A stretch of 64,000 nucleotides of DNA, from NCBI GenBank assembly GCA_963727455.1, contig CAVSGG010000008.1, positions 32,001-96,000 of the forward strand. The letters run 5' to 3'. Position numbers and translations under genes: made by a program. How positions within the stretch are numbered: the first letter of the stretch is position 1; every line of letters starts with the position of its first letter. Source of the stretch: Candidatus Krumholzibacteriota bacterium (GTDB taxonomy: Bacteria; Krumholzibacteriota; Krumholzibacteriia; JAJRXK01). Under the pieces are notes generated by a model, which saw only the letters and a program-made list of their open reading frames with translations, ran no database searches and was not told the origin of the DNA. Shown here in pieces: positions 28,160-52,603 of this stretch.

Positions 28160-28914
28160 CTGGGCTCCCTCCCCCGGCGCCCACCGAGTTCCAGCGCGAG
28201 ATAGGGTCCCGCGTCGATGCTGGACACGAGAGGAAGTGCGAGCAGGAGATTGAGAGGGGAAAGACTCAAGCCCAGGTGCAGGCTCCCTCCGCTTCCGTCT
28301 CCTCGACAGGCCAGTGAAAGCGGAGCAAGCAGTAACTCCAGGCCCGCACTCCAGACGCCGCGTTCTTCGAAGGGAGAATCCTCTCGCATCAGCGCCGCCA
28401 CCCAACCACTTCCCTTTAGTTCGAACACGTACGCGGCAGTCGCCGGGAGTCGAGCAGGCCTGTGGTCCAGTGGAAACTCCTGCTCGAGCCCGAAGGAGAA
28501 GCCTCGCGTGCTCATCACCAAAGCCAGCTCGGCCCGCGCACTCAGCTCGCTGGCAATCGTCTCCACTACTCTTTCTTGCCGGTGCACGCGGGCGTGCAGA
28601 CCAAGCGACGGCCCCTCGACTCGAATCCCCAAGCCAAAGTTCTGTTCGGAATAGGCCGCTGCGTGTAGCTGCCCGACCAGGGCCCAAACGTGGAGGGAGG
28701 AACTCGGTGTCCAGCTACCCTCCAACCAGGCCTGACTGGTGAGCGCGAAGCTGACCGGGTTTCCTGCCGCCAGCCGCAGCCTGGCCGTGGGTGCTCTCAT
28801 CCAGGAATCGCCAGGGAGGGTTTCCAGGCGCTTCGGTCCCGAGAAGCTCCCGGCTTGAGCGCTCGCGTGCAAGCATGAGAGCAAGACCATACCTAGCAGG
28901 CTCGGCCACTTCAT
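28156..28914 (-). CDS. exported hypothetical protein, probable small outer-membrane beta-barrel
   Basis: Signal peptide MKWPSLLGMVLLSCLHASAQA; amphipathic beta pattern; ATGA-coupled on both sides. Confidence 0.65.
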   Translation of the reverse strand: MKWPSLLGMVLLSCLHASAQAGSFSGPKRLETLPGDSWMRAPTARLRLAAGNPVSFALTSQAWLEGSWTPSSSLHVWALVGQLHAAAYSEQNFGLGIRVEGPSLGLHARVHRQERVVETIASELSARAELALVMSTRGFSFGLEQEFPLDHRPARLPATAAYVFELKGSGWVAALMREDSPFEERGVWSAGLELLLAPLSLACRGDGSGGSLHLGLSLSPLNLLLALPLVSSIDAGPYLALELGGRRGREPR

Positions 28915-30539: not shown

Positions 30540-30625
30540 GGAACGCACCTCCCGGGAGACTTCATCGAGGGAGGCGCGACGGGTCCTGGCCTAAATAGAG
30601 GAGACTATGGAAAGCGGGCGTGGGA

Positions 30626-33012: not shown

Positions 33013-33045
33013 AAACAAAAGCGCCGGCGTAGGTAGCCGGCGCTT
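33013..33045 (-). terminator. intrinsic terminator after the STAS gene
   Basis: AAGCGCCGGC-7nt-GCCGGCGCTT followed by TTGTTT on the minus strand. Confidence 0.8.
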
Positions 33046-33068
33046 CGAGGCTCAGGAAGGCAGTTTTC

Positions 33069-33428
33069 TCAAGTCGTTGCTGATGCGCTCACGGCTTCTT
33101 CCACCGTCGCGAAGGCCTCGAGGATGTTCTGGAACTCCAGCAGTTCGAACACTTCGTAGACGTCGGGAACCATACCGACCAAGCGCAGGTCGCCGCCGTT
33201 CTCCCGGATCTCGCGAATGACGCTGATGAAAATACCCCAGCCAGCCGAGGAGATGTAGGAGACCCGGGAAAGGTCCACGATGATCTTGTAGCGCTTCGAC
33301 TGAATCAGGGACTTTATTTCCTTCTCGAATTCGGCCGAGGTGGTCGTGTCGATGTAGCCTGCCACCTCCAGGACCTGCTGATCCGGGCAGGATTCGTGCG
33401 CCTTCGAAATGACCATGATCCCATCCAT
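33069..33428 (-). CDS. STAS-domain anti-sigma factor antagonist (RsbV/SpoIIAA family)
   Basis: GYID, VDLSRVSYISSAGWG (phospho-Ser motif), GGDLRL, VFELL. Confidence 0.93.
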   Translation of the reverse strand: MDGIMVISKAHESCPDQQVLEVAGYIDTTTSAEFEKEIKSLIQSKRYKIIVDLSRVSYISSAGWGIFISVIREIRENGGDLRLVGMVPDVYEVFELLEFQNILEAFATVEEAVSASATT

Positions 33429-33484
33429 CGAAAGCCCGTCTCTTTCTCTACTTGAGCTACTTTAGCAAAGCTGTTGTAGCATAA

Positions 33485-36007
33485 CTAGTTACGTGTTTTT
33501 TCCAATCCGGCGTCTACGGACTCCGTCCCCGCTTCCTGCGACGCCGGCGGTTGCTCTTCATCCGTGTGCAAGCTTCGGTCCAAGCCAAGGCCGTGATCGG
33601 CCCGATTCTCTTCGGGTGCGCCCTCCTGGGGATCCAGGCCCCGGCGCCGCAAATAGAGGCGTCGTTTGGGCTCGTTGCTGAGGTCCAGGCGTACGAGTTC
33701 GTCGTAGACCATCTTGGCATTGGCCTCGTGGCCCCGCTCGCTCAGGCGATCGGCCAGGCGTTTGGCACCCAGACTTGGATCCGTCCGCACGAGCTCGACC
33801 ATCGCCTCGCGCCCCTCGACGGTGAGGCGGCGCAAACCCGCCTGGGAGGCCCGGCCAGCGAGGGCCTCCTCGCCACCCAGCTCGCGCATTCGCCGCCAGC
33901 GGTAGTACGTGGAGACGGAGGTACCATAGGTCCCGCAGGCCTCCTCGATGCTCATCCCCTCGACTTCCACCATGTCCAGTAGGCGTTGTCGCCGCTCGAT
34001 CTCCAACGAGGCCGGTCGTAGCTTCTCCTTCACCGCAACCACCGTGATGTCGTCGTTTTGCGCGTTGCCTCCGGTGAAGGCGGCAATGTCATCATTGAAG
34101 GCAGCAATGAACTCTTCAGCTGTCCGGCCCGCGTTCTTGCGCACGCACTCGATGAGACGCTGCTCGCCGTACTGTTCCCGCGCAGCGTTCATCGCCTCGG
34201 TCACGCCATCGGTGTAGATGAGGAGCAAATCGTCTTGCTGCAGCTGGACCTTCTCCACCTCGATCGTCTTGGAGAACAGCTCTGGATCGGGCAGCGAAAT
34301 TCCTACCGGGAATCCGGCCGGATTCAAGAAGAAGACCTCGTCGGTTTCAATGCGATACAGGAGCATCGGGTTGTGGCCGGCCGAGGAGTAACTGATCACG
34401 CGATTCCGCGAGTCGAGAATGATGTAAAAGAGGGTGATGAACATGCCACGGCGCATGTCCTCGGTGATGAAGGTGTTGACGCGGCTCATTACGTCGCTGG
34501 CCGAGTGATTTCCCCTGGCCTCCATGCGCATGGCGGTGCGGATCATGGTCATCACCAGGCTACCGGGGATTCCTTTCCCCGAGACGTCCGCGACCACGAT
34601 TCCCACTGTGTCCTCGTCCACCGCGAAGAAATCGTAATAGTCGCCGCCGACTTCCGCCGCTGCGCGATACATCGCGGCGATCTCGTATCCGGACAGTTCC
34701 GGCATCGCGGTTGGCAGCAGGGTGTGCTGAATCTCCCGCGCGAGTTGCATTTCCTTTTGGAGGCGTTCCTGCTCGACCAGATGCGATTGCGCATGGCGGA
34801 ACTTGGACGCAATTTCATTGAATGCAGCCGCGATGGTGGAGATCTCCTCGGGGCCGTGCACCTCGATGTTCTGCTCGAGCACCCCGTCACCGATCGCGAG
34901 CACGCCCTCGGTGAGCTGCTGGATGGGACGAACGAAGAGATTCACCATCACGAGGATGAGCAGGATACCCACCAGCAAGATGACCAGTCCGATTCCCATG
35001 GCGTGTAGAAGGGCCGCGCGATATCGCCGCTCCAGGTCCGAGGTCTTCAGTCCCAACACCACCCGTCCCAATTCGACTCTCTTCCCGGAGGGCCCTTGGA
35101 TGCTCACCGGGTAGTTCAGCTGGAGCACCCGTCCTGAGTCGAACTGGATACGCGTCCACGCTCCCGAATTCTCTCCGTGGTCGATGAGTCGACCGGGCTC
35201 GGGGTGCCAGGCGTTGAAGAGATCGTCCAGCACACTATCGGCCCAGATGCTGCCATCGGTGCCGTGCACCACGCGCGCGAAGGCGATGGTGGAATCGTGA
35301 CGCGCGAGTTCAGTGACGCTCTGCTGCAGAAGCGTTCGTTCCACCGAATAGGGATCGCTGCTGGCAAGCACGCTCCTGGACTGCACGGCCAGGTCGCGCG
35401 CGGTCGCCTCGATACGGCTGAGCTCTTGGTCGAAGATCGTCTGCCGTTGGCGATAATGCACGACCGAGAGAGCGAGAATCACCAAGAGCGCCAGACCGAA
35501 GGAGGCGCGTAGGGTGAACCGCATCCTCAAGCTACGGTGAAGAGCGGAGAACTGGATTCCCGGAATCCAGCGGTCGATGGGCGGACGCCGGTCCATGCAC
35601 ATTCGGAGCTCGTTGCTTCCGTCCGTGGTCGTGTAAATCACCTCATCCATGATCCGATTGATGAGGTAGATCCCGAGTCCTCCACGTTTCCCGATCGCCA
35701 CGTAATGGTCCAGGTCCGGTACCGCCACCGAGCCAAAGTCGAAAGACTCGCCGGTGTCCTTCAGGACGATCTCCACCTGACCGGAGAAGTACTTCACCTG
35801 GATGGCGATCTCACCGCCCTGATTGTGATAGGAATGCTGGATGATGTTCGTGCAGGCTTCGTCGACCGCGAGTTTGAAGTTGGCGGTGTCCGCCGGATCG
35901 AATCCGGCCTGCATGCAGATGCGTGCCACGAAATCGCGTACCTGAGCCAGATGACTCTCGCGGGCCTCGATTACGAGCTCCGCCGTCTTGATCCGGCTGC
36001 CGATCAC
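33485..36007 (-). CDS. membrane RsbW-like kinase / periplasmic sensor / HAMP / PP2C (SpoIIE) phosphatase / HTH fusion
   Basis: LAVDEACTNIIQH, DTG, GGLGIYLI; two TMs; RPIQQL..EIS.IAAAFN; VGGDYYD, ADVSGKG, YTDGVTE, DDIT; C-terminal HTHs; GTGA overlap sets start 36007. Confidence 0.9.
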   Translation of the reverse strand: MIGSRIKTAELVIEARESHLAQVRDFVARICMQAGFDPADTANFKLAVDEACTNIIQHSYHNQGGEIAIQVKYFSGQVEIVLKDTGESFDFGSVAVPDLDHYVAIGKRGGLGIYLINRIMDEVIYTTTDGSNELRMCMDRRPPIDRWIPGIQFSALHRSLRMRFTLRASFGLALLVILALSVVHYRQRQTIFDQELSRIEATARDLAVQSRSVLASSDPYSVERTLLQQSVTELARHDSTIAFARVVHGTDGSIWADSVLDDLFNAWHPEPGRLIDHGENSGAWTRIQFDSGRVLQLNYPVSIQGPSGKRVELGRVVLGLKTSDLERRYRAALLHAMGIGLVILLVGILLILVMVNLFVRPIQQLTEGVLAIGDGVLEQNIEVHGPEEISTIAAAFNEIASKFRHAQSHLVEQERLQKEMQLAREIQHTLLPTAMPELSGYEIAAMYRAAAEVGGDYYDFFAVDEDTVGIVVADVSGKGIPGSLVMTMIRTAMRMEARGNHSASDVMSRVNTFITEDMRRGMFITLFYIILDSRNRVISYSSAGHNPMLLYRIETDEVFFLNPAGFPVGISLPDPELFSKTIEVEKVQLQQDDLLLIYTDGVTEAMNAAREQYGEQRLIECVRKNAGRTAEEFIAAFNDDIAAFTGGNAQNDDITVVAVKEKLRPASLEIERRQRLLDMVEVEGMSIEEACGTYGTSVSTYYRWRRMRELGGEEALAGRASQAGLRRLTVEGREAMVELVRTDPSLGAKRLADRLSERGHEANAKMVYDELVRLDLSNEPKRRLYLRRRGLDPQEGAPEENRADHGLGLDRSLHTDEEQPPASQEAGTESVDAGLEKTRN

Positions 36008-38019
36008 TTGGGTCCACCCTCTCGGCCAGTGTCCTGCTCGATGCGTTCGATCCTTGCCTTGGCTTCGGCAATATTGTTTTGGGCGCCCTGGTTTCCAGGA
36101 TCGACCTTGAGAATTTGCTCCCACTGCCGAATCGCCTCTTCGTAGTTGCCCTCGGTGAAGGAACGCAGTCCCGCCAGATAATACTGACGCACCTGCTTCT
36201 CCTCACTCGGACTGAGCCTAGTCGGTCCGGATTTGCGGTGGGCGATCTGATCGAGAAGGGCCAGCGCCTGAGCGTGCTTGGGCTCACGCTTCAGGACCTC
36301 ATGGCACAGCGCTTCAGCTTGGTCCAGTTCACCTTTCGAGAATGCCTCGAGTGCCTGGGTGAAGCGTCGCTCCTGCGCGAGCTCGCCGCGGGCGCGCTCG
36401 GCATCGGCCTGCGCTTGTTCGCTCTCGTGACGCGCAGCATCCAGCTTCGCCTTCCATCGTTTCAGGGCGGCAGCGGGAGCGGGATTCTCCGGATCGAGAG
36501 AGGCCACGACGCTCCAAGCGTTCAGCGCGGATTCCCAATCGCCCGCCTCTTCCGCCGCGGTGGCTTTGGAGGTGGCGGTGGCCATCGCACTGGCCTCGAG
36601 GTCCTCCACCTGCAGGGTGAGTCGCGGCAGCATGGGATAGTCCGCCGCGAGTTCGCTGAGAGCGTTCAGCTCCGCTCGGGCCCTCAATGCGTCATTCTGG
36701 TTCAGAGCGGCCCGAACTTGAGTTTCCGCGTCTTCGATCCGAAGCGCGCGGCGCTGCTCGTCGGCTTTCTGCCTGCCAACGCGCTGCTCCAGATCCTGCA
36801 GGCTTGCCAGCTGGGTCGAGAGAGAGTCGTCGGCCACTCCGAGGCTGCGCGCCCGCGCCAGGCTCCTTTGCGCGTCCGGTAGAGAACCGCGGCTCAGGGC
36901 GTCCTGGAATTCCTGCACCGCGCTCTCAATCTGTGATTTGCGCCAATTCTCCACCGCCTCCATGCGGGCCTGCATCAGCTCTTTGGCCCGCAGCTCGTCG
37001 CGGTGACGGCGACGATCCTTCATGTCCTGGCCGAAGTACCAGGAAAGGCTCAAGAACTGCGAGGAACCCAGTTCTCCGCCCGAGCGAAATGCGTAATCCA
37101 GGGAGTAGTCGCGCCAACGGCCGCCCAAGCCGGCGTTGAAATGACCGTCGTCGTAACTCAGGCGCAGAGTGTAGAGTCCTTCATACTCAGCCTCCGCGCC
37201 CAATCCGAGACGATTGTCGGCGTACTGTGGTTTGTCGTAGACCGCCGCTAACTGGACCGTCGTATTCTCACTGAAATCATACCGCTTGCTGAACGCAAAG
37301 CGTTGGGCATAGGGGAGCTTGTCTTCACGCTCGATCAGGCGGAAGCTCGGGGCGATCAGATTTTGGTATACGAAAGAGACCCGTACCCCCCCGAGACGCG
37401 GAGGAACCCAGGCGAGTCCCAGGTCCATGCCGCCACTGGTGCTCTTCTCGCCCAGATCCAGGCTGTGGATCTTGGCGCTGGTGCCGAGATCGAGTCGGCC
37501 ACCCAGGTAGGGCAGCCTTCCCCCGTATCCATAGCTCAAGAGAAGTTGGGTCTCACCGTAGCTGATGCTTCCGGTGGGTCGACTCGTGCTATCGTAAGTC
37601 TCGATGTCACCCAATTTGAGCCGCAGGATGCCGATACCGAAGCCCCCCGCGTTCAGAGTTGGGTAGGCAAGTCCCAAGTAGCCGTAGGTCGCGCCGCCGT
37701 CGAGACCATAGAGACGGTTGTAACTGAAGGTGAGCTGTGAACCACGCGCATGGGGCAAGAGCGCCGGATTCCAGAAACAGGCGCTCGCATCATCGGCCAG
37801 CCCCACCATGGTTGATCCCAAACCCACTCCGCGCGCAGTCGGACCCAGCTTGAATATGGACTCCGTTCCTCCTCCGTCGCCGGCAGCACTCGCGGAGCTT
37901 GCCGTAAGGAAACAGCCGAGCAGAAGCATCAGAGCGGCTACGCTCAGCGTTCCGCATGCGCTCTTGTGGAGAGAGGAACGCGGCGCGGTGAACTCGGGGA
38001 TGGGGCAGCCGGGCTTCAT
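36004..38019 (-). CDS. PorV/PorQ-like outer-membrane beta-barrel fused to coiled-coil/TPR domain
   Basis: Signal peptide; FKLGPTARGVGLG, ADDASACFWNPA; barrel ends FLSLSWYFG; TPRs such as YLAGL..F.EGNYEEAIRQWEQILKVDPGN. Confidence 0.82.
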   Translation of the reverse strand: MKPGCPIPEFTAPRSSLHKSACGTLSVAALMLLLGCFLTASSASAAGDGGGTESIFKLGPTARGVGLGSTMVGLADDASACFWNPALLPHARGSQLTFSYNRLYGLDGGATYGYLGLAYPTLNAGGFGIGILRLKLGDIETYDSTSRPTGSISYGETQLLLSYGYGGRLPYLGGRLDLGTSAKIHSLDLGEKSTSGGMDLGLAWVPPRLGGVRVSFVYQNLIAPSFRLIEREDKLPYAQRFAFSKRYDFSENTTVQLAAVYDKPQYADNRLGLGAEAEYEGLYTLRLSYDDGHFNAGLGGRWRDYSLDYAFRSGGELGSSQFLSLSWYFGQDMKDRRRHRDELRAKELMQARMEAVENWRKSQIESAVQEFQDALSRGSLPDAQRSLARARSLGVADDSLSTQLASLQDLEQRVGRQKADEQRRALRIEDAETQVRAALNQNDALRARAELNALSELAADYPMLPRLTLQVEDLEASAMATATSKATAAEEAGDWESALNAWSVVASLDPENPAPAAALKRWKAKLDAARHESEQAQADAERARGELAQERRFTQALEAFSKGELDQAEALCHEVLKREPKHAQALALLDQIAHRKSGPTRLSPSEEKQVRQYYLAGLRSFTEGNYEEAIRQWEQILKVDPGNQGAQNNIAEAKARIERIEQDTGREGGPK

Positions 38020-41000
38020 CGTGTCACCGCGATTCTAAAGTAGATCTCCCGTCCGGCCGCGCGCACACGGCAGAGGTAGACTCCATTCCGCACCTCTTGA
38101 CCGAGACCGTTTCGCCCGTCCCAGAGCACGTCGCCGTCGTGAATCCCCGGCTCGGTTTCAGGACTGCCGTTGGCAAAACTCCACTGGCGAACTCGCTTTC
38201 CCAAAAGATCGAAGATCTCGATCTCGACCGGGCCGCTCTCGGGAAGCGAATACGAGAGGGTGGCGGGCTGCCGGCTCGGAACGAAGGGATTGGGGTAGCT
38301 ATGTGCATCCAGTTCGGAAGACGCTTTCGCCGTGACACTGTGGCCAGCCAAGATGAGCGAATGGCCGCCTCCCTCTACGTCGAGCAAGGCGTAGCTGAGC
38401 TCAAATCCTCCGGAGTCCAGAATCGAAGCACTACCGCCATCCACCGCGAAACGGAATGAGACGTAGCCCGCGTCGGATTTGGCCTGCGCTCCCACTCGGA
38501 ACGCAGCCGAGGTGTCCGAATCGATGACCAGATCTACAGGAATACTCACCGGATTTCCGCCGACCGTCGCACTCCAGCTTCCCGTGCCGTCGGTACGCCG
38601 CACCTGAATGGTCTGCAAGAAGCTCGAGGGATCGGCGAAAGGCTGTCCTGCGTCGTCGACCAGTGTCAGCTCGAGCTGGGTGAAGTGCACCGCTTCGGGA
38701 TGCCCGTTGCTGAGATGCATTGCCAAGCGCTCGTAGATGCGATCGCTGCCGATCAGCGGGCCCGTGTCGCTCAAATCACTGATCGTGAGCCGCAGAGGGT
38801 CTGCCAGGATCGAGAGCGCGACAGTGCTCTCGGCCGTCGATTCTCCAGCTGCCAGTCCGCTGTTTTCGTCCACCGGGATCTGCTCAGCCGTCAGAGTAAT
38901 CTTCTGCACCCCAAGGTCCAGACTCATGGGACCCTGGACTCTCCACACGAATTGGTCACTGGGATCGGCAAGGTCGACGCTGGCCGGCTGGCCATCGAGA
39001 ATGGTGAAACCGGAGGGCACCGAAAGGTGAAGACGCGCCGGTCCCAGAACCTGGGCGCTGCCACTGAGCGCGAAATCTCCGCGAAGCTCGACGACCGCTC
39101 CCGGCGGTAGTTCGCCTCGATCGCGCGCGCTGTTGGGCTCGAGAATCGCGAGACGGGGAACCGCATGCGCAGCTTCCACGATGTCCAGAGCCGAACTCGC
39201 ACAGGTGTCCGCCAACACACTGCCACTCTGCACGTCGGTGGCGTGAGCCACCGTGCGCAGCAGGAGGCCGGAAACCGGCGTGCTCGAACAGAGCAGCTGC
39301 CAACTCACCGTCGTCTGTCCAGGCACCATCTCTTGACGCGCATTCCCGCCAACGAGCGCCAACTGTGGCGGCAAGAGCAACTCGAGGGAGCGCTGCTGCA
39401 AATTCGCCGGCCCGTCCACTTCCCCTTGCAGGGTGAAGGTCTGCCCCGTGCTCAAGACCGTATCCTGAGCCCCCTGGGGTGAGAGAATGCTCAAGCCGCA
39501 GGAGTTGAAGGAGACTCCGCCAAACACCTCGACTTGCAGGGTTTGGCTGGACGCCGTGGTGAGCGGCCGCGCATCGGGATCGTTGACGTCCAGGTCCACC
39601 CGCGACAGCTCCGCCACCAGCTCGGCGGTCTGGGCCGTCGCAGGAGCCACGAGTTGAATGGTGGCTTGGGGATTGGAGGGATCGAGCTGGACTGGGAGAG
39701 TGCTCTGGGAGTCCAGAGTAAAACCCTGCAAACTGCTGAAATCGACCTGGACGGGCAACCAGGATCCCGATTCCTGTAGGGAGTTGTTCTCATCCAGAGC
39801 GAAACGGACCGAAATGACCTGGCCTGGCGATACGGACATGGTGAGGGGATCGAGGCTGTCCACGAGTTCGGCGTTGAAGCTGAGAGAGACCGGCTGTTGA
39901 ACCTGAAGATTCGCGAGATCGTCCAGGGGAGTCTGCGGAATGATTTCCTGCTGGGTGGTGGATGACAGAGCGCGCACGATGGAAACGCGCAGCGATTCGG
40001 GACCCGGAGATGTCGTGACGGTCGTATCGAAGTAGAGGGTATCGACTTCACTGGATTGCAGTCGTGGAATCAAGATATCCGCCGCGCTCGAAGCGGGTAC
40101 TGCGCTCCCGCCGAGACGCACGGTCAGCGAATCGATGGCCTCGCCGGCGTTGTTACCCACGACCACTCGCACCGGAATGAGCTGGCCGGTGTTCACCTGG
40201 GTGAGAGGGGCGCTCGGATTTAGAGCTACGGTGGAGAGAATGCGCAATCCGGCCGGGTCGAAGAGCGAGAGCGTTCCGTCGGGTAGGGCCAGATCGGTGC
40301 TGAATGGCAGACCATTCTGCGTACCCCGCACTTGGAGGTATCCCTGCGGAGTGCCCAGTGCCAGATCCGAGGGTAGGCTCAGGGGGGAGAAAGCGAGTTG
40401 GGTGCTGCCGGTGGTCAGTTTCGACGGCCCAAGAGGATCCAGTACGGCCCCGATTCTCGTCCCCTGAGGCTCACCGAAGTTGAAGCGCGTCGCGAGGGGA
40501 TCGAGGACGATCTCCGCCTCTCCCTGGTTCTGCAGAGAGAGCTTGAACGCGACCGTCGATCCACGCAACGCCGAGGCCGGTTCGAGAGGAGTCGGTACAA
40601 GCGCGAGATTGGCCGGGGTTTCGGTGGTGATCGCGCCTGCTCCGATGAGATCCGCGGAGAAAGCAAAGCTGTTCTCGGTGCCCTCCAAGTGCAGTTGAAG
40701 ATCCTGACTTCGACTCCCTAAAGCCGCGTCAACGGGCGTGGGGCCAAAGCTGAGTTCCGCTTCCTGGCCGGGCGCGAGAGCGAGAGATGTGGTCAACGCG
40801 CCGCTCCAGAGCCCGCCTCCGAAGCTCGCAAGGGAAGTCGCCGGGTTCAGAGAGACCGTGGCGCCGCCGTTGTTCTTGACCCGCGCCTTCAACAGCAGAT
40901 CGGCTCCGTAGTGGATTCGGGAGGGACTCACGCTGCCGTCCACGAACTCGAGCTGTGAGGCCGCACTTACCAACAGCGGAGTAGCCGATGAGTCCGGTGG

Positions 41001-44000
41001 AGCCGTGAAATCGGCCCCCGCCACCGTCCCCGTGACGCGCGCTATGAAGCGGTATGTTCCAGGTGGAGTGGCAGTGCCCACTCTGACTCGCGAGCTCAAA
41101 TCATTCTGACCCCCGGCTGCGACCGTTCCGAGGGGATCCTGATCGACCAGTGTGAAGTCCGCCGGCGGTGAAGACTGCAGCGCGAGTTGCGAAATTCCGA
41201 TCGGACCCGCACCGAGGTTCTCCACCGTAACGCGAAGATTGAGAGTATCTCCGGGTACCGCCTGGGTTTCGTGAGCCACCGAGCGGATGACCAAGGCGCT
41301 GACCAGAAACGAGCCTTGAGGAAGCACGATGAAGCTCGTAACGGCTTGACCATGGATGTCCTGTCCGGCCAGTTGCAGCGTGGGTCGAAAAGAGCCCAGA
41401 GCGAAACTGGCGGGGAGGGTCGCCGTGCCGAAGCTGAGGGTTCGGCTCGACGAAGCCGGCACAGTCGTATCGCTGAGCAGGGAAGCGCTAAGGATTCCCC
41501 CCTGTCCGTCCTCGATCCTCAGCTGCGAGAGACCGGCGTCCAGAATCGCGTCGACGCCACCTTTGTTTTGGAGGGAGATGGTGAAGTTGAGATCCTGACC
41601 CGGCACCGCGGCCGCGGGAGCAAGAGTGCCGTCGATTGCAAGCGCTGCTGGCGCTGCAAAGATCGCATTCGCACTACCAGTTGCGGCTGCACTCGCGAAA
41701 CTGACGGTGACCGTGCCGGCAGTGAGAGGTGATGCCAGCCGGAGGTCCACCATTCCCGACTCGTCGCTCGCTCTCTGGACTCCGCTGCGCTGAAGATCGA
41801 AATCGTCGGAGATGATCCCACCCCCGGTCGCGCTCACGTCCACCGAAGTCCCCGTTGCCACCACGTTTCCGAATGCATCGCGAATCGGCCCCGCACTCAG
41901 GCGCGTCACCGAGAGCCCGTTTGCCGTGTTCTCGCTTGGATCCACCAGGGGCACTGGAATCGTTCCCGAAGCCGACGCGGGAACCACCAGAAGATTGTTC
42001 AGGCTGCCCGTGACGGCGGGAAGGGAGGCAAGGCTCACATCCACGGTCAAAGGTCCGGCCTGCAGAGCACTCAGTTCCACCGTGGCCTTTCCCGCCACCA
42101 GGGAAGCCGGCGAAGGCGTAACGCCTACCCCAGACGGTGTCGAATTGAAGACGAGCTGACCCGTCAGGTCCACAACGTTGCCGGCGGAGTCCTTGGCGAT
42201 GATCGTGAGGGTGTTCGGGTCTCCCGCGGTAAAGAGGGTATCGCTGATCGCGAGTTCGAGATGGTCCGCGGAACCGGGCAGAGCCTGCACCGTCCAACGA
42301 GCGGTCTCCAGCGCAGCGGGGTTGCCGTCCAGGATCGAAGCGCGCACCCGATGGTCTCCGCTGGTCGCCGAGAGATGAAGGTCGAAAGACAATTCCCCGT
42401 TGCTGTCGGTCGAAGCAAGACCGTCGTCCGGGGGTGCGGTGGGGTCTTCCAGGCTTGCGCCTGCGGGGGAAGCCAAGAGACTCAAGTGAACGGGAACCCC
42501 ACTCACCGCGTTGCCGTAGGCGTCGACGACACGCGCGAGGAGTGAGACCGTCGTTCCGGCGGGCGCGCTCTGGAGCGTGTCCCCTACAGCCCTAAGCTGG
42601 AAGGCAGTGCCGGACGCCACGCTGATCAAGGGACTCTGGGCGTTGATCGAGGGTTGTGATTTCAGACTGGCAGTGATGGAGAACTGCTCCACCAGCGTGT
42701 CCCGCGCGCTGGCCGAGAGAAGGCCCGCGTTCAGCGCTCCTTCGTCGGGAGTCAGGACCACTCCAGACCCGGTGGAGCTCAGCATTATGGAGTCCGCGGC
42801 CGCCAACACCTGGTTGCCTGCGGCATCGAGGGCAGTGATCGCAAGCGGGAGGTTCTGCCCCGCAGTCACATTCGTCTGCGAGGGGAACACACTGAGCGAG
42901 GCGATGGGACCAGCCACGGTCTGCACCACGAAAAGAACCGTCTCCCGTCCCACGGGATTTCCATCCAGGATTCCCACACGCAGACGCAGGGTTTGCACCG
43001 TCGAGTCCGTGAGGACCGTGAAGGTGGCCTGGCCGTTGCCGTCGCTGACGGTCGGGCCGACTTGGATCACTCCCCCCTCCAAGGACAAAACGTTCAACGC
43101 CTCGTTGCCTACCGCATTGCCGAAGGCGTCCAGTACCTGCACTCCGAGGTTGACGCTCGAGCCTGAAGTCACACCGGACAATGTATCCGCGCTCGTGCTC
43201 GCGAGTTCGTAGGCGCTGGCCGGGCCCACCGTCAAAGGCGGTCCCACGTACCCTTTCCCGTCCGCACTGAGCCGGATTCTGTAACTCCCAGAGGTATCAA
43301 TGCGTTGCAGAGAGGTCGAAAAAGTGCCCCGGGTAAGTTGGCCCTCACTGACCATGAGCGGGAGCGAAACCACCGTGGTGGTGTCCGCGCCATCGACGAG
43401 ATCGAAAGAGAAGCTATCGAGAGCGGCGCTCGCCACATTTCCGAAGGCATCGTACGCAGTTGCGCTCAAGCTGAAGGGCGTTCCCGCTGTCACGATCGCG
43501 GGATAGGCGAGCTGATAGTCGGCCACCATCGAGTTCGCCAGGATTTGTAGGCTCCCGCTATCTCCGTCCAGGAACGCCGCTGAATCGTCCGCGGTCAAAG
43601 CGTGAGTTCCGGCCACACTTCCCTGGTAATAGACCGTAGCCTGACCGTTGACCGGGAGGTTCAGTGTATCGAGGTACGGTCCGCCGCTCTGCGCAGAAAA
43701 GGCGAGACCGGTCGAGGGATCGGCGTGCACGATGACGGTAGCGGAGTTGGTGAAACTCGTATTGGAAAAGCTGTCCACCAGTGCCAGACCGAAGCTGCCC
43801 TCGACTCCCGCCTCGATGCCGCCCGTGGGCAGAGCGAGTTCAATCGCGCTCGCGCTTCCCACCACCGAGGTGTAGACGAGATCTTGAACCGCGGCTGAGG
43901 GAACTTGACTCGAGCTCGCGTCCAGAACGTCCTGGCGACCCGCCGCCGAAGGTGCGTGGTACATCACGTGGATTTGTCCGTCGACATCGGTCAGTCCACG

Positions 44001-46568
44001 CTGTGAAGCCAATCCGAGAGAATCCGTCTCTCCCACTCCGGAAAGTACCCCGTCGAGCAGGTCGCTGGAAAACACGGTGACCTCGACGCCAGCCACCGGG
44101 TTTCCGTAAGTGTCGGTGGCCAGGGCCGCGACCAGTTCCGAGCCGCCCACCACGAGATCGCGCGCGCCGTTGGGTTGCAGGACGAGTGAAACGGTCTGTC
44201 CGGCGGTAGCGACGGCGTTGAAGTTCAAGGGCGACGCGAAGGAAGTCTCCGCCGAGAGACTCTGTGGACCGGCCACCGTGCCCAATTCCCACAGATCACA
44301 GCTCGCGTAGCCCAGTGAATCACTGAGAGCTGCACTCTGATCACCCGGAGCGAGGGGATCCGTGTCGACACGTCCACCGTCGGTCGGAAGGAACTGGACG
44401 GAAGCGCCACTCACGGGATTGCCAAAGGCATCCAGCACGCGCGTTCTAAGCGCCAGCGCTAGGGCAGTTCCCACCGTGGCGCTCTGTCCGTCTCCCGAAA
44501 TCTCTTGCAGAACACTCGCGGGAGCGGCAAGAAACTCAAGATCCACCTCAGCTGAAGCCGATCCGTCACTGAGAGTGACACTCAGATCTTCCGCCAAGGT
44601 GTTCGTCAGCTGGAGCTCGACTCTTCCCGAGTCGGCCGGAGCGAAGACGTAGTCCGCCTCACCGGAGGGCAGAAGGCTCAGACTGCCAGCGCCGTTGCTC
44701 GCCCAGCTCAGATTGCTCCCGTCACCGATACTCGTGCTTGAAAGATGCATCGTGCCGCCGTAGCCGCTCACGCGGTTTCCCGATACATCCAGCGCATCCA
44801 CCTGAATAGCCAGGGCTGCACCCGCTGTTCCGACATTTCCCGCCGGAAGGTTCACCGTGAAATGGTCGAGCGGTCCGGGCACGAATTCCAAGTTCCGTTG
44901 GGGCCCCACCAATAGACCATCGAGGCTTGCCTGCGCAGTTCCCGCGCCGGCTGCAGTGGAACGCAGGCGCGCATGAAACTCTCCCAACGCATCACTGCTC
45001 GCGTCCAACTTGTCGAGCTGCCACGCAGCGGAGAGCGTGAAACCGATGCGGCTCGAGTCGATCCCCGCCACAGGATTCCCGAACGCGTCTTTCAGGCCCA
45101 ATAACAAGTCGATGGTATCGACTCCGTCTGCGACCGCGGATGCGTTGGCGGAGAGCGAGGTGGCAGAAGAATCCACGGCAGAGGCGGTGAATACGGCGAG
45201 GGGTTGGGCGCTGAGCGCCGCACCGCCGGCCGTTACGCTCACTGGCCTGGTGCCAGCGGTCGTCGAACGAAGCCGTGCCGCGAAAGTACCGTCCGTCGCG
45301 CTCGATCCACTCAGCTTCTCCACCGCGACCGCGCTGGCGCTGATCACGATCTGCGCGCTGTCCACCCCGGCCACGGCATTGTCGAAGGCATCTCGCAGAG
45401 TCGTCTGCAGAGTCGTGAAATCCGTACCATCCGCCAGCGCCGGCCCGCTGACCACGGCTGAGGAATGGTCGGGGTCCACGGGTCCCGCGCGGAAATCGAT
45501 GTCAAGAGTATCACTCAGTGCCACTCCACCTACGGTAACGGCGAGGCGACGTGAGGACGCGACAGTGGTGCGCAAGAGGGTCGTAAACGAGCCATCCAGG
45601 GCCGAACTTGCCGCCAATTTTTCCACGGACAGTCCATCTCCCAGTACCGTGAAGACAATTGCGGACGAGTCCACGCCCGAAACCGCGAGTCCTCCACCGT
45701 CGCGTAGAACGAGGTCCACCTGGATTGCATCCACACCGTCCGCTACTGCGCCCGGGCCGCCACTCAGGCTTGATTGTGTCGAGTCGATCGCTCGCGGCGT
45801 GAATTCGATCACTGGGTGATCGCTGAGCGTCGTTCCATCCACTGCCGCGTCCAGACTCCAAGAACCAGCCAGAAGCGTTCTGACCCGCAGGGGGAAGCTG
45901 CCCTCGGCTGCACTCGCCGCCGACGGCTTCTCCACCGTGAAAGCGGAAGCTGACAACGCGGCTGAAATTCGCGCACTGTCCACTCCTGCAATCGTGTTCC
46001 CAAAGGAGTCGCGCAGGACCAAAGTGACCGAGCTGAACGCGCTTCCGTCGGCCACAACCGGTGAAGTTGAACTCACCGAGCTCTGCTGTGAATCCACTGC
46101 AGCGGGAATCAAGGTGATCGAGGCCTGGTCGTAGCCCAAATCCGGAGAGCTGGTCGATCCATCGACCACCGTGAGTCCAACGGGAAGCGAAGTGACGTGG
46201 GTGGCGCGATACAGGAGATCCACTCCGGAGGAATCGGCGGCGATGCTGGCCGAACTCACCGCGGGCCCTCCCACGAAGCGATAGTAACTTCCGGAGGAAT
46301 TGTCGCTGAAGAGGTCGATTACCTGCGCAGCGGATACGGGCGAAGGATCGCCGGAGACATCCACACTGGAGACCCGAATGGGCAAGTACTCCCCCGCGAT
46401 GGCCGTGTCCGAGGCGGCCTGGATCACCAGGGCTGAGGGGGGTTGCACGGCCAGGGCCGTCCGAGGCAATAGCAGGCAGATGCACGCCGCGCTGAGGAGC
46501 AGGGAAACCCGTCCCAGTTGAGCGAGACGTTCGTGAATGCGCGTGAGTGGTCCCGGCATAGTGTTCAT
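38016..46568 (-). CDS. giant (2850 aa) secreted Ig-like repeat protein with T9SS-like C-terminal domain
   Basis: Signal peptide; invasin/Big-type ADG...LRD.FGN repeats; many D-x-x-G-N units; C-terminus SYPNPF...IFDLLG...WDGRN..G..V.NGVY...IAVTR. Confidence 0.9.
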   Translation of the reverse strand: MNTMPGPLTRIHERLAQLGRVSLLLSAACICLLLPRTALAVQPPSALVIQAASDTAIAGEYLPIRVSSVDVSGDPSPVSAAQVIDLFSDNSSGSYYRFVGGPAVSSASIAADSSGVDLLYRATHVTSLPVGLTVVDGSTSSPDLGYDQASITLIPAAVDSQQSSVSSTSPVVADGSAFSSVTLVLRDSFGNTIAGVDSARISAALSASAFTVEKPSAASAAEGSFPLRVRTLLAGSWSLDAAVDGTTLSDHPVIEFTPRAIDSTQSSLSGGPGAVADGVDAIQVDLVLRDGGGLAVSGVDSSAIVFTVLGDGLSVEKLAASSALDGSFTTLLRTTVASSRRLAVTVGGVALSDTLDIDFRAGPVDPDHSSAVVSGPALADGTDFTTLQTTLRDAFDNAVAGVDSAQIVISASAVAVEKLSGSSATDGTFAARLRSTTAGTRPVSVTAGGAALSAQPLAVFTASAVDSSATSLSANASAVADGVDTIDLLLGLKDAFGNPVAGIDSSRIGFTLSAAWQLDKLDASSDALGEFHARLRSTAAGAGTAQASLDGLLVGPQRNLEFVPGPLDHFTVNLPAGNVGTAGAALAIQVDALDVSGNRVSGYGGTMHLSSTSIGDGSNLSWASNGAGSLSLLPSGEADYVFAPADSGRVELQLTNTLAEDLSVTLSDGSASAEVDLEFLAAPASVLQEISGDGQSATVGTALALALRTRVLDAFGNPVSGASVQFLPTDGGRVDTDPLAPGDQSAALSDSLGYASCDLWELGTVAGPQSLSAETSFASPLNFNAVATAGQTVSLVLQPNGARDLVVGGSELVAALATDTYGNPVAGVEVTVFSSDLLDGVLSGVGETDSLGLASQRGLTDVDGQIHVMYHAPSAAGRQDVLDASSSQVPSAAVQDLVYTSVVGSASAIELALPTGGIEAGVEGSFGLALVDSFSNTSFTNSATVIVHADPSTGLAFSAQSGGPYLDTLNLPVNGQATVYYQGSVAGTHALTADDSAAFLDGDSGSLQILANSMVADYQLAYPAIVTAGTPFSLSATAYDAFGNVASAALDSFSFDLVDGADTTTVVSLPLMVSEGQLTRGTFSTSLQRIDTSGSYRIRLSADGKGYVGPPLTVGPASAYELASTSADTLSGVTSGSSVNLGVQVLDAFGNAVGNEALNVLSLEGGVIQVGPTVSDGNGQATFTVLTDSTVQTLRLRVGILDGNPVGRETVLFVVQTVAGPIASLSVFPSQTNVTAGQNLPLAITALDAAGNQVLAAADSIMLSSTGSGVVLTPDEGALNAGLLSASARDTLVEQFSITASLKSQPSINAQSPLISVASGTAFQLRAVGDTLQSAPAGTTVSLLARVVDAYGNAVSGVPVHLSLLASPAGASLEDPTAPPDDGLASTDSNGELSFDLHLSATSGDHRVRASILDGNPAALETARWTVQALPGSADHLELAISDTLFTAGDPNTLTIIAKDSAGNVVDLTGQLVFNSTPSGVGVTPSPASLVAGKATVELSALQAGPLTVDVSLASLPAVTGSLNNLLVVPASASGTIPVPLVDPSENTANGLSVTRLSAGPIRDAFGNVVATGTSVDVSATGGGIISDDFDLQRSGVQRASDESGMVDLRLASPLTAGTVTVSFASAAATGSANAIFAAPAALAIDGTLAPAAAVPGQDLNFTISLQNKGGVDAILDAGLSQLRIEDGQGGILSASLLSDTTVPASSSRTLSFGTATLPASFALGSFRPTLQLAGQDIHGQAVTSFIVLPQGSFLVSALVIRSVAHETQAVPGDTLNLRVTVENLGAGPIGISQLALQSSPPADFTLVDQDPLGTVAAGGQNDLSSRVRVGTATPPGTYRFIARVTGTVAGADFTAPPDSSATPLLVSAASQLEFVDGSVSPSRIHYGADLLLKARVKNNGGATVSLNPATSLASFGGGLWSGALTTSLALAPGQEAELSFGPTPVDAALGSRSQDLQLHLEGTENSFAFSADLIGAGAITTETPANLALVPTPLEPASALRGSTVAFKLSLQNQGEAEIVLDPLATRFNFGEPQGTRIGAVLDPLGPSKLTTGSTQLAFSPLSLPSDLALGTPQGYLQVRGTQNGLPFSTDLALPDGTLSLFDPAGLRILSTVALNPSAPLTQVNTGQLIPVRVVVGNNAGEAIDSLTVRLGGSAVPASSAADILIPRLQSSEVDTLYFDTTVTTSPGPESLRVSIVRALSSTTQQEIIPQTPLDDLANLQVQQPVSLSFNAELVDSLDPLTMSVSPGQVISVRFALDENNSLQESGSWLPVQVDFSSLQGFTLDSQSTLPVQLDPSNPQATIQLVAPATAQTAELVAELSRVDLDVNDPDARPLTTASSQTLQVEVFGGVSFNSCGLSILSPQGAQDTVLSTGQTFTLQGEVDGPANLQQRSLELLLPPQLALVGGNARQEMVPGQTTVSWQLLCSSTPVSGLLLRTVAHATDVQSGSVLADTCASSALDIVEAAHAVPRLAILEPNSARDRGELPPGAVVELRGDFALSGSAQVLGPARLHLSVPSGFTILDGQPASVDLADPSDQFVWRVQGPMSLDLGVQKITLTAEQIPVDENSGLAAGESTAESTVALSILADPLRLTISDLSDTGPLIGSDRIYERLAMHLSNGHPEAVHFTQLELTLVDDAGQPFADPSSFLQTIQVRRTDGTGSWSATVGGNPVSIPVDLVIDSDTSAAFRVGAQAKSDAGYVSFRFAVDGGSASILDSGGFELSYALLDVEGGGHSLILAGHSVTAKASSELDAHSYPNPFVPSRQPATLSYSLPESGPVEIEIFDLLGKRVRQWSFANGSPETEPGIHDGDVLWDGRNGLGQEVRNGVYLCRVRAAGREIYFRIAVTR
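44870..46090 (-). repeat. four tandem ~105-aa invasin-like Ig repeats (protein level)
   Basis: VVADGSAF..LRDSFGNTIAGVDS; AVADGVDA..LRDGGGLAVSGVDS; ALADGTDF..LRDAFDNAVAGVDS; AVADGVDT..LKDAFGNPVAGIDS; bounds approximate. Confidence 0.75.
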
Positions 46569-46603
46569 CGCAACCCAAGTGTCTGTGGATCAAGAACTTG
46601 GAA

Positions 46604-46619
46604 AGCAATGACCGTGCCC
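46604..46619 (-). promoter_or_regulatory. putative sigma54 promoter of the giant-protein operon
   Basis: GGGCACGGTCATTGCT, GG-N10-GC, 35 nt upstream of ATG 46568. Confidence 0.62.
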
Positions 46620-46770
46620 GGAGCGCGGGAGGTGGAAACAGAATGTCAGGGGGTCTTCCAAGGGGCTCAGGCAAGGGAATCTGTACGATCCTCGGCCGCC
46701 GGCGCACAGGAACCGGCCGGCCCCGTCCCCAAAGGAGAGGGTCCTGGGACCAAAGCGGCGCAGCGGGTTC

Positions 46771-47268
46771 TCAAGATGCGTCTTGGCTGCCCAGCTCGTC
46801 CAGTTTGCGCATCCCCTCGAGCATCAGATAGTCGAGACTGACGTCGAGCAGGATGTCTTCGTTCTCGGGGTAGATCTGAGAGTAGAAGGCGAAGGTGCCT
46901 TCCTCGATCGTCACCAGTTGAAAGACGATTTCCTCGATCTGACTGCGCACGGCTTCTTTGAGCTGCTGGTCGGTGATCGAGCCCACCTCGACCAGGATGG
47001 TACCGATCCTCTTACCGCCGGCCAGCCCCGCCTTCATTTTGGCGCCTTCCAGTTGGGAGCGCTCCAGCAGCCCGCTGCGCACCAGGTAATCGCCCAGGCG
47101 TTCGGTCCGGGCATCCGTGCGCGCGTAGATCAATCGTCCCTGGTGGAAATAGACGCGGGCCCGTTGCTGCGAGCCGTGAAGCACCAGCTTCCCGGTGGCC
47201 TGCGCAAGGTGCAGGAGCTGAAAGATGTTCGCCACACCGAAGAGTTCGATTCGGCCCCGCAGATCCAA
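46771..47268 (-). CDS. stand-alone DUF4388 (PATAN-like) protein with MshEN-like motifs
   Basis: LRGRIELFGVANIFQLL...TGKL, RLGDYLVRSGLL, RIGTILVEVG, EGTFAF, LEGMRKLDE; TTG 47268 has GGGGAG SD. Confidence 0.85.
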   Translation of the reverse strand: MDLRGRIELFGVANIFQLLHLAQATGKLVLHGSQQRARVYFHQGRLIYARTDARTERLGDYLVRSGLLERSQLEGAKMKAGLAGGKRIGTILVEVGSITDQQLKEAVRSQIEEIVFQLVTIEEGTFAFYSQIYPENEDILLDVSLDYLMLEGMRKLDELGSQDAS

Positions 47269-47331
47269 GATTCTCTCCCCCTGAACACGGCTCAAATCCG
47301 CCCAGGATGGCGGACTTTGGACCGCCTTCGC

Positions 47332-52584: not shown

Positions 52585-52603
52585 CGATCCATCTTCCTCG
52601 GGT

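Follow-up and report, generated by a model that had tools for sequence, protein, structure and literature searches.

The stretch of DNA analysed here, 64,000 nucleotides of contig CAVSGG010000008.1 from a Candidatus Krumholzibacteriota bacterium (hereafter the window), carries at 33069-46568 four open reading frames that all run in the same direction on the minus strand. In gene order they encode a giant secreted protein ending in a C-terminal domain (CTD) of the kind that type IX secretion systems (T9SS) sort, an outer-membrane barrel of the PorV/PorQ family fused to a TPR tail, a membrane-spanning sensor in which an RsbW-type serine kinase (HATPase_c_2) and a PP2C (SpoIIE) phosphatase lie on either side of a periplasmic domain and are followed by a helix-turn-helix (HTH) domain, and a small STAS protein:

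38016-46568, minus strand: gene for the giant secreted protein, 2850 aa
36004-38019, minus strand: gene for the PorV/PorQ-family barrel with TPR tail, 671 aa
33485-36007, minus strand: gene for the kinase/PP2C sensor protein, 840 aa counted from the GTG start; the longest open reading frame extends to 36124
33069-33428, minus strand: gene for the STAS-only protein, 119 aa

A preliminary description of this DNA had reported four co-oriented genes, the first three coupled by 4-nt overlaps, and both overlaps can be read directly in the sequence: ATGA at the junction of the giant and barrel genes ('cacgATGAagc', 38019-38016) and GTGA at the junction of the barrel and sensor genes ('aaGTGAtcg', 36007-36004). 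The four product families it named agree with matches to Pfam and NCBIfam models and with an AlphaFold2 (AF2) model of the barrel, and its proposal that the predicted locations of the products step inward in gene order, from the surface of the cell to its cytoplasm, is in keeping with topology prediction and with the same barrel model.

The gene order is conserved across several phyla

We searched 185,579 species genomes with a profile of the barrel-TPR protein and retrieved 75 loci, whose open reading frames were then searched with the proteins of the window; 63 genes 3′ of the PorV-like open reading frames were scanned against Pfam, as were the C-termini of 65 genes 5′ of them together with that of the window's own giant protein. 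In 14 loci (L001, L002, L004-L012 and L014-L016; class A), a kinase/PP2C gene comes directly after that of a full-length PorV-TPR relative; in L003 the contig ends within the barrel gene. The gene that follows the barrel begins with HATPase_c_2 in 14/14 class A loci, and HAMP and SpoIIE domains are present in all 11 whose contigs reach them. Upstream of the barrel, a large protein that matches the giant protein and bears a CTD-type signature was found in each of the 12 class A loci with upstream sequence, and STAS, either separate or fused, in 9/9 that extend past the PP2C/HTH region. The preliminary description had put synteny forward as a check that could overturn its proposal; these counts for the kinase, CTD and STAS genes do not overturn it. 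Where they are named, the class A lineages are Krumholzibacteriia, Latescibacterota, Ignavibacteria and KSB1. The closest locus (L001, Krumholzibacteriia) has the whole neighbourhood in common with the window, from the PPDK gene to the HHH-domain gene.

A second set of loci (L019, L033 and L051, Elusimicrobia type; class B) combines a CTD protein and a full-length barrel-TPR gene with a histidine kinase. The CTD-bearing protein lies directly upstream in all three, and the kinase has the architecture sCache_3_2-HAMP-HisKA-HATPase_c, with a hybrid response-regulator kinase next to it in L019. The segment of the class B kinases from the first transmembrane helix (TM1) through the sensor domain and TM2 to HAMP shares homology with the corresponding part of the window protein (236 columns aligned by hhalign at probability 99.3 and E 4.2e-20; phmmer, 31-36 bits). 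Because the histidine-kinase loci keep a homologous sensor part, it is the sensor module that stays beside the barrel while the cytoplasmic chemistry differs. A quick IQ-TREE analysis of 72 PorV-like open reading frames (392 columns; without the truncated L003, L012, L037 and L061) puts the barrels of class A and class B in separate clades, and a single clade of the two was rejected (AU test, p 0.00108 against joining). We do not rely on this tree because the group was chosen post hoc, the deep branches are unresolved, rows of both classes have odd composition and composition varies from lineage to lineage.

Conservation of the cluster across several phyla, together with retention of the sensor beside the PorV-TPR gene when the output is a histidine kinase, argues on sequence grounds that the genes of the operon are functionally linked. 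That they are neighbours through shared ancestry only is highly improbable. Many of the class A loci do come from related Krumholzibacteriia and Latescibacterota, and their synteny is not independent; however, the order is kept at ~25-30% identity of the barrel protein in Ignavibacteria, KSB1 and Elusimicrobia-type loci, the gene junctions overlap, and a change of output left the sensor module in place.

The window carries a reduced form of the cluster

Judged from sequence, the locus of the window is a reduced form of the cluster, a point absent from the preliminary description. The sensor protein reaches 1436-1486 aa in L002, L004, L009 and L014, where it carries three fused STAS domains after the HTH (for the STAS fusion, L004) and where downstream of it lie genes for a ParA/MinD-like ATPase, a 90-aa open reading frame, a PilW/Tgl-like TPR protein, two STAS proteins and a homologue of the 744-aa protein that is encoded downstream of the window's operon:

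L004:16323-19374: example of the accessory genes of the long form; others are in L007, L011 and L015:1-738

This long type makes up the majority of 120 relatives of the sensor protein among the matches listed, all 120 of which were found at about E 1e-220 or better. In KSB1, a gene for an accessory TPR protein lies upstream of the giant gene. In Ignavibacteria the sensor gene is succeeded, in this order, by genes for a ParA-like ATPase, STAS, a GGDEF protein, export proteins of Wza-like and Wzz-like type and a TPR protein; the GGDEF and Wza/Wzz-like genes point to cyclic di-GMP (c-di-GMP) and exopolysaccharide as likely outputs in those loci. None of the accessory genes of the long form or of the Ignavibacteria loci occurs anywhere in the 64-kb window.

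A PorV-family barrel with a helical tail

The second gene encodes a protein with a hydrophobic N-terminal segment (topology prediction) and two structural parts:

37033-37740, minus strand: 14-strand barrel, residues 94-329 (AF2 model)
36028-37023, minus strand: helical/TPR tail, residues 333-664 (AF2 model)

It passes the PorV/PorQ family model NF033709 (91.5 bits, cutoff 90, residues 56-327) and falls well under the cutoffs of the PorV equivalog NF033710 (18.6 vs 250), of PorQ (52.9 vs 220) and of PorP/SprF (18.8 vs 90.55). Because the family model is passed and the PorV and PorQ equivalogs are missed, we regard the protein as a member of the PorV/PorQ family that is an orthologue of neither. 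TPR_2 is matched at residues 613-643. In the AlphaFold2 model, built from an alignment of ten relatives (mean pLDDT 74), the 14 strands give way to long helices and TPR pairs over ~330 residues. Foldseek ranks highest two chains that we take to be PorV, 8gl6_F and 6h3i_F from solved T9SS translocon complexes (target-normalised TM 0.59-0.60). Conservation is concentrated in two places: the segment before the barrel is highly conserved and holds a WNPA motif, and the last TPR has many invariant residues between Y614 and R656.

The family is large. An exhaustive profile search with the PorV-TPR profile yielded 1232 cluster representatives at E <= 1e-30, and among the best 148 of these, barrel and terminal TPR occur together in 124 (median length 643.5 aa). 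A fused signalling domain in the long representatives (1100-1440 aa) was considered and ruled out, as these contain extra TPR repeats only.

The fold comparison also bears on a different function for this protein, in which the barrel would be a FadL-type uptake channel for a hydrophobic compound sensed by the Cache domain of the third protein and the link to the CTD protein would be incidental; todX, which adjoins todST, is a model for such a pairing of uptake channel and sensor. The FadL-type channels FadL, TodX and TbuX do appear among the structural matches, ranked after the PorV chains, and the conserved WNPA segment contains NPA, a motif of FadL, of which a 'delta NPA' mutant is in the Foldseek list. 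We consider this reading very unlikely: the best profile and fold matches are to the PorV/PorQ family and to T9SS translocon chains, the class B barrels score 41.6 bits on the Pfam PorV model (cutoff 27), and a CTD protein lies directly upstream in 12/12 class A loci with upstream sequence and in 3/3 class B loci.

A kinase/phosphatase sensor and its STAS partner

Topology prediction places two transmembrane segments in the third protein (residues 162-186 and 329-366), and these separate the kinase from a periplasmic domain and the latter from the remaining cytoplasmic parts:

35597-35971, minus strand: RsbW-type Ser kinase, HATPase_c_2, residues 13-137 (PF13581, 99 bits)
35012-35449, minus strand: Cache/PDC-like periplasmic domain, residues 187-332, between TM1 and TM2 (AF2 model)
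34808-34948, minus strand: HAMP, residues 354-400 (Pfam)
34028-34618, minus strand: PP2C/SpoIIE, residues 464-660 (PF07228, 166.8 bits)
33638-34006, minus strand: transposase-type HTH, HTH_23/HTH_28/HTH_32, residues 668-759 (Pfam)

Across 12 sequences, many columns of the kinase region are invariant (for example E50, N54, D84, G86, G106 and G109-G112); in the PP2C region G454-Y457 and A473-G479 are invariant and Y598-G601 and D652-D653 nearly so. We take these columns to be the ATP-binding and metal-binding motifs, and by this measure both domains look active. The kinase domain misses the RsbW equivalog models (79 bits vs 145 and 71 vs 155), and no sigma factor gene is encoded in the 64-kb window. 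The protein also scores 70.3 bits against the SiaA model, whose cutoff is 700, and is therefore no SiaA orthologue.

The C-terminal HTH region, which the preliminary description did not mention, resembles the DNA-binding heads of IS481 and IS630 transposases and is conserved in every row of the sensor-protein alignment that reaches it. Comparison of the HTH with solved structures gave only spurious helical matches to protein A constructs, which were dropped. The AlphaFold2 model of the periplasmic domain (15 sequences, pLDDT 90.3) is Cache/PDC-like, with a long N-terminal helix and a PAS-like sheet between the transmembrane segments; its best Foldseek matches are extracellular domains of WalK/YycG, followed by DctB, CitA and DcuS, and the periplasmic domain of Chlamydia trachomatis RsbU (6mab) ranks 41st. 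Pfam sCache_3_2 has no match in the window protein and is present in L009 and in the class B histidine kinases.

The fourth gene encodes a protein with matches to PF01740 (74.5 bits) and TIGR00377 (68.3 bits vs 53.45) and no predicted transmembrane segment. In an alignment with the solved antagonists 1sbo and 4hyl, its 'ISSAG' is aligned to 'DSAG' of 1sbo, which puts Ser61 at the conserved acceptor position; we take the Ser of D-S-x-G to be the phospho-acceptor, as in SpoIIAA and RsbV. In the part of PMC5085249 that treats the antagonist HsbA, the acceptor is Ser56.

A giant protein with a T9SS-type C-terminus

The 2850-aa product of the first gene has a hydrophobic N-terminal segment at residues 15-42 (topology prediction), a putative signal peptide, and is built of repeats (Big_1 in 8 stretches, Invasin_D3 in 6, plus CARDB/DUF11-type repeats). 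It ends in the putative sorting domain:

38019-38312, minus strand: T9SS type A-like C-terminal sorting domain, residues ~2753-2850 (TIGR04183)

The domain scores 23.1 bits against the type A sorting model TIGR04183 (cutoff 23) and remains below the cutoff of 27 in Pfam (FlgD_ig 19-23 bits, Por_Secre_tail 18.8). Because TIGR04183 is barely passed and FlgD_ig lies under its cutoff, the call is borderline on its own; recurrence of the weak signature in the upstream gene of 12/12 class A loci adds weight to it. Conservation of the giant protein extends over a C-terminal module of ~780 aa, with the last 750-800 aa collinear with the upstream genes of L004, L006, L009, L010 and L014; for the upstream gene of L015, the last ~500 aa are collinear. 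No T9SS core genes lie within the 64-kb window.

Relationship to described systems

To our knowledge, how T9SS-type bacteria learn that their surface proteins have arrived is largely open, and the sole described case is that of the PorA CTD acting on PorY. Full-text literature searches, which exclude subscription-only papers, returned no published description of the present layout and no paper joining Krumholzibacteri- and type IX secretion; those listed for T9SS together with partner-switching were unrelated. The statement in the preliminary description that no characterised system has this layout holds for the layout, but not for its principle, as PorA-PorV-PorY is a case of a cargo CTD signalling to an inner-membrane sensor. 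In Porphyromonas gingivalis, porA and porV are not known to be linked to porX and porY.

According to the relevant passages of PMC12152298 and PMC7712824, PorA of P. gingivalis uses its CTD to bind the sensor kinase PorY in the periplasm and turns on T9SS genes, and PorA was also found bound to PorV. The likeness to PorA-PorV-PorY/PorX-SigP is that there, too, a CTD cargo carried by PorV signals to an inner-membrane sensor. In contrast, P. gingivalis porX and porY are far apart (PGN_1019 and PGN_2001, in the same part of PMC12152298), whereas cargo, barrel and sensor of the window form one overlapping operon. The window barrel also has a 330-aa TPR tail, its sensor is a kinase/PP2C/HTH partner-switch protein rather than a PorY-like one (in class B a Cache-HAMP histidine kinase), and the carriers lie outside the classical Bacteroidia.

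A second likeness is to SprB-SprF and PG1035-PorP-PorE, in which, as far as the consulted sections of PMC9143113 describe them, a very large adhesin is encoded beside, bound by and anchored by its own barrel, and a TPR protein, PorE, joins the barrel. These barrels belong to the PorP/SprF family, a model that the window barrel fails as given above while falling in the PorV/PorQ family; their cargoes bear a type B CTD, whereas the giant protein is weakly type A; and their TPR protein is separate and no signalling protein is part of the unit, whereas in the window the TPR is fused to the barrel.

For the cytoplasmic chemistry, the closest parallels are partner-switching systems. The portion of PMC5085249 on HsbR describes a single protein that phosphorylates and dephosphorylates a STAS antagonist on Ser, and that of PMC7278518 on SiaABCD describes the PP2C phosphatase SiaA and the kinase SiaB acting on SiaC, which controls a diguanylate cyclase. 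The GGDEF and polysaccharide export genes behind the STAS gene of the Ignavibacteria relatives extend the likeness to HsbR-HsbA-HsbD and SiaABCD; the window's own locus has no GGDEF gene, which follows only in those relatives. Unlike HsbR, the window protein has a periplasmic Cache-HAMP input instead of a receiver domain, with the order kinase-sensor-PP2C-HTH, and the Hsb and Sia systems of Pseudomonas aeruginosa are unlinked to a secreted adhesin or an outer-membrane barrel. RsbU-RsbV-RsbW of Bacillus and the chlamydial Rsb proteins represent the same families (PP2C, STAS and HATPase_c_2 kinase), and a membrane RsbU with a periplasmic sensor exists in Chlamydia (6mab; see also PMC11619594); in the window, however, kinase and phosphatase are fused in one membrane protein with an HTH, and no sigma factor gene is nearby.

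NlpE/CpxA and RcsF are similar in principle only, in that an outer-membrane component reports to an inner-membrane sensor (as cited in a passage of PMC12152298). The window has no TonB-dependent transducer, FecR-type anti-sigma factor or ECF sigma factor such as those of FecA-FecR-FecI, and its barrel is 14-stranded and PorV-type with a C-terminal TPR extension. In FecA-FecR-FecI, an outer-membrane barrel reports across the periplasm to an inner-membrane sensor.

All parts of the operon come from described families, although the equivalogs PorV, PorQ, PorP/SprF, RsbW and SiaA are missed. Three features are new. A PorV-family barrel and a TPR tail are fused; this barrel gene is in fixed pairing, within one operon, with genes for a Cache-HAMP sensor and a CTD giant; and the sensor protein has the architecture kinase-sensor-PP2C-HTH(-STAS x3), with an exapted transposase HTH and, in most members listed, three STAS domains.

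A proposed role in monitoring a surface adhesin

Our preferred reading, which we regard as an even call, is that the operon encodes a giant T9SS-type adhesin, its own PorV-family carrier or anchor, and a dedicated envelope sensor that reads a protein signal. The contacts, the nature of the signal and the output are what we infer here, from what the sequence shows: which genes and domains are present, their topology and synteny, and the conserved catalytic motifs. The barrel would serve as the adhesin's own outer-membrane carrier or anchor, as SprF does for SprB and PorP for PG1035, and the adhesin/carrier pair would supply a protein signal for the Cache-like periplasmic domain to read. This signal might be the cargo CTD waiting in the periplasm, as for PorA with PorY, or it might be the TPR tail of the barrel, as the preliminary description had it. 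HAMP would then tip the balance of the fused kinase against the phosphatase; this balance would set the phosphorylation of STAS Ser61, and outputs through STAS partners and through the HTH, as a direct transcriptional arm, could adjust surface or biofilm functions. The arrangement suggests that the cells monitor their own surface adhesin. It would link a giant adhesin to partner-switching and, in relatives, also to c-di-GMP and exopolysaccharide export.

Several observations weigh against this reading. Synteny across related lineages is partly inheritance and is to that extent not independent evidence; the CTD assignment of the giant protein is borderline by its score; and the window's STAS gene has next to it neither a sigma factor gene nor a GGDEF gene as an output target. 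Within the sensor protein, conservation is lowest in the periplasmic domain (31% mean pairwise identity as against 72% for PP2C), of which no column is invariant across classes A and B. Judging by analogy, Cache/PDC domains commonly bind small molecules, and DctB, CitA and DcuS are among its structural matches.

These last points lead to a second reading, the less likely of the two, in which the third protein is an ordinary co-located regulator: the Cache-like domain would bind a small molecule from the periplasm or the environment, the switch/HTH protein would control expression or activity of the adhesin operon, the barrel would act solely as carrier of the adhesin, and the tail would bind secretion or cell-wall components instead of the sensor. 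We give it substantial weight because Cache domains have such ligands, the periplasmic domain is poorly conserved and the tails resemble one another regardless of partner. The matches to small-ligand sensors and the sCache_3_2 of the relatives speak for it, the protein's own HTH fits a self-contained regulator, and the canonical T9SS TPR proteins SprE/PorW and PorE contact secretion components (PMC10994853 and PMC9143113, in the passages on these proteins). Against a regulator of this kind, the order of barrel gene and translationally coupled sensor gene is fixed in 14/14 class A loci, and it is the sensor module and not the output that is kept beside the PorV-TPR gene upon the change to a histidine kinase; in our judgement, a pure regulator co-translated with a 2850-aa structural protein would also be unusual.

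The adhesin-monitoring reading names defined protein pairs: sensor domain and CTD, sensor domain and TPR tail, STAS and kinase, and STAS and PP2C. The carriers of the module are mostly uncultured. With cargo, carrier and sensor hard-wired in one operon from Krumholzibacteriia to Ignavibacteria and KSB1, and a histidine-kinase variant in Elusimicrobia-type genomes, the module amounts to a natural experiment. It is large, conserved, widespread and uncharacterised, and its mechanism is proposed here from these features.

Other tailed barrels and the role of the tail

Tailed PorV-like barrels also occur beside other partners. In the Elusimicrobia-type loci L018, L020-L023, L025, L026, L032, L042, L043 and L062, the PorV-like barrel encoded after a CTD giant has a shorter TPR tail (~530-570 aa), and the next gene joins YscJ_FliF_C, FliG_M, FliG_C and TPR (partial in L020, at the contig end). 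L021 (9977-19465) continues with a 1300-aa protein without assignment, MotA, MotB/OmpA and Wzy_C. From its domains, the FliF/FliG-like neighbour looks like a stator/rotor-type partner of a surface-protein barrel. In KSB1 (L047:9983-14960, L053:9935-13702 and L065:9974-13765), CTD proteins are accompanied by a PorV-like barrel with a ~340-aa tail that is not related to the TPR tails and by a long MotA_ExbB protein, which in L047 is followed by two ExbD genes. L050 (9878-12856) has another sensor-type neighbour: a CTD giant and a tail-less PorV-like gene (355 aa) precede a 633-aa FecR-domain protein.

Comparison of the tails by hhalign gave E 1.8e-22 for class A with class B and E 5.7e-19 for class A with the barrels that have a FliG-like partner (class C); the sole tails unrelated to those of class A are the KSB1 tails with MotA/ExbB partners (probability 0.5). 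Tails of barrels with FliG-like partners are thus about as similar to class A tails as class B tails are, and the tail does not co-vary with the partner, a further point against a protein signal read by the sensor; we treat the comparison as uninformative because TPR repeats inflate such scores.

These data bear on the version of the mechanism given in the preliminary description, a sub-case of the adhesin-monitoring reading in which the barrel and its TPR arm would transmit load or contact on the giant protein to the sensor. The long helices of the model, ~330 residues in all, could extend into the periplasm, and the last TPR is rich in invariant residues (Y614 to R656). Other tailed PorV-like barrels adjoin inner-membrane motor proteins (FliG-like with MotA/MotB, or ExbB/ExbD), which fits the idea of a tail that joins the barrel to the inner membrane. 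Such a relay is nonetheless unlikely: a rigid barrel would be a poor conductor of force in our judgement, tail similarity does not follow partner class, PorV in its canonical form acts as a mobile carrier and departs from the translocon (PMC10994853, in the section on PorV), and the precedent works through the CTD in the periplasm, not the barrel (PMC12152298, in the part on PorA).

A broader idea, which we hold to be doubtful, is that tailed PorV-family barrels are general trans-envelope connectors of the Fibrobacteres-Chlorobi-Bacteroidetes (FCB) group and Elusimicrobia-type bacteria, each joining one CTD cargo to one inner-membrane partner, either a Cache-HAMP sensor or a stator-type motor (FliF/FliG-like with MotA/MotB, or ExbB/ExbD). 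If this were true, the operon would be a cargo-coupled signalling machine in which the state of the adhesin is physically reported to a kinase/phosphatase switch.

Transcription signals and flanking genes

The operon is bounded by a promoter-like element and a terminator:

46604-46619, minus strand: -24/-12 (sigma-54-type) promoter-like element GGGCACGGTCATTGCT, 35 nt 5′ of the ATG of the giant gene
33013-33045, minus strand: intrinsic terminator 3′ of the STAS gene, an 8-bp perfect GC hairpin GCGCCGGC-TACCTAC-GCCGGCGC followed by TTTTGTTT (letters at 33043-33013)

The upstream -24/-12 motif noted earlier is present, with one mismatch to what we take to be the sigma-54 consensus, but by count alone it is not significant: the window has two sites with at most one mismatch against 0.55 expected, and at least two were found in 10 of 100 shuffles. 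A block of ~41 nt (46580-46620) that contains GGGCACGGTCATTGCT is near-identical upstream of the orthologous gene in L001, with diverged flanking spacer. Because no sigma-54 activator is encoded within the 64-kb window, the promoter call is unconfirmed; in the Ignavibacteria loci the upstream element is a different one, TTGACA-17-TATCAT. Directly 3′ of the -12 element and within the conserved block lies an inverted repeat, CAAG-TT-CTTG (CAAG-TG-CTTG in L001; 46580-46603, minus strand), which could be a candidate operator for the HTH domain. At the other end, the intrinsic terminator of the preliminary description was recovered as a hairpin with a T-run (fold of the region -28.3 kcal/mol, z -3.2); the hairpin has no entry in a consensus terminator scan of the window.

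The immediate neighbours on either side are encoded on the same strand:

30626-32860, minus strand: downstream neighbour, 744 aa, with two N-terminal transmembrane segments, a VWA-like motif (DDSGS) and a hydrophobic segment at the C-terminus
46771-47295, minus strand: upstream neighbour, DUF4388 protein (PF14332, 104 bits)

The 744-aa protein has no match in Pfam or NCBIfam; the ESM Atlas groups it with GATase1_like/VWA membrane proteins at 0.99, which we treat as a lead only. Genes for its homologues come after the STAS genes in L001, L004, L009 and L014, and the gene is probably a separate transcript that belongs loosely to the unit. A gene for a lamin-tail-domain protein with a CTD-type C-terminus (LTD, CHU_C, FlgD_ig; window 28911-30548, minus strand) lies beyond it, and an LTD gene is also found 3′ of the 744-aa gene in L001 and L014. 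The DUF4388 protein, whose domain we take to be PATAN, scores 37.7 bits against a model of the MshEN-like c-di-GMP-binding motif (NF053729, cutoff 38), and its gene is at the same place in the close relative L001 only; it is a possible associate of the operon. Elsewhere in the window, a membrane protein with MASE9 and HD_5/HD (HD-GYP-like; 11557-12909, minus strand) is, from its domains, a possible c-di-GMP phosphodiesterase, and a BNR/Sortilin protein (50164-52947, minus strand) has a CTD-type C-terminus that matches the ends of the PorZ and PorU models.

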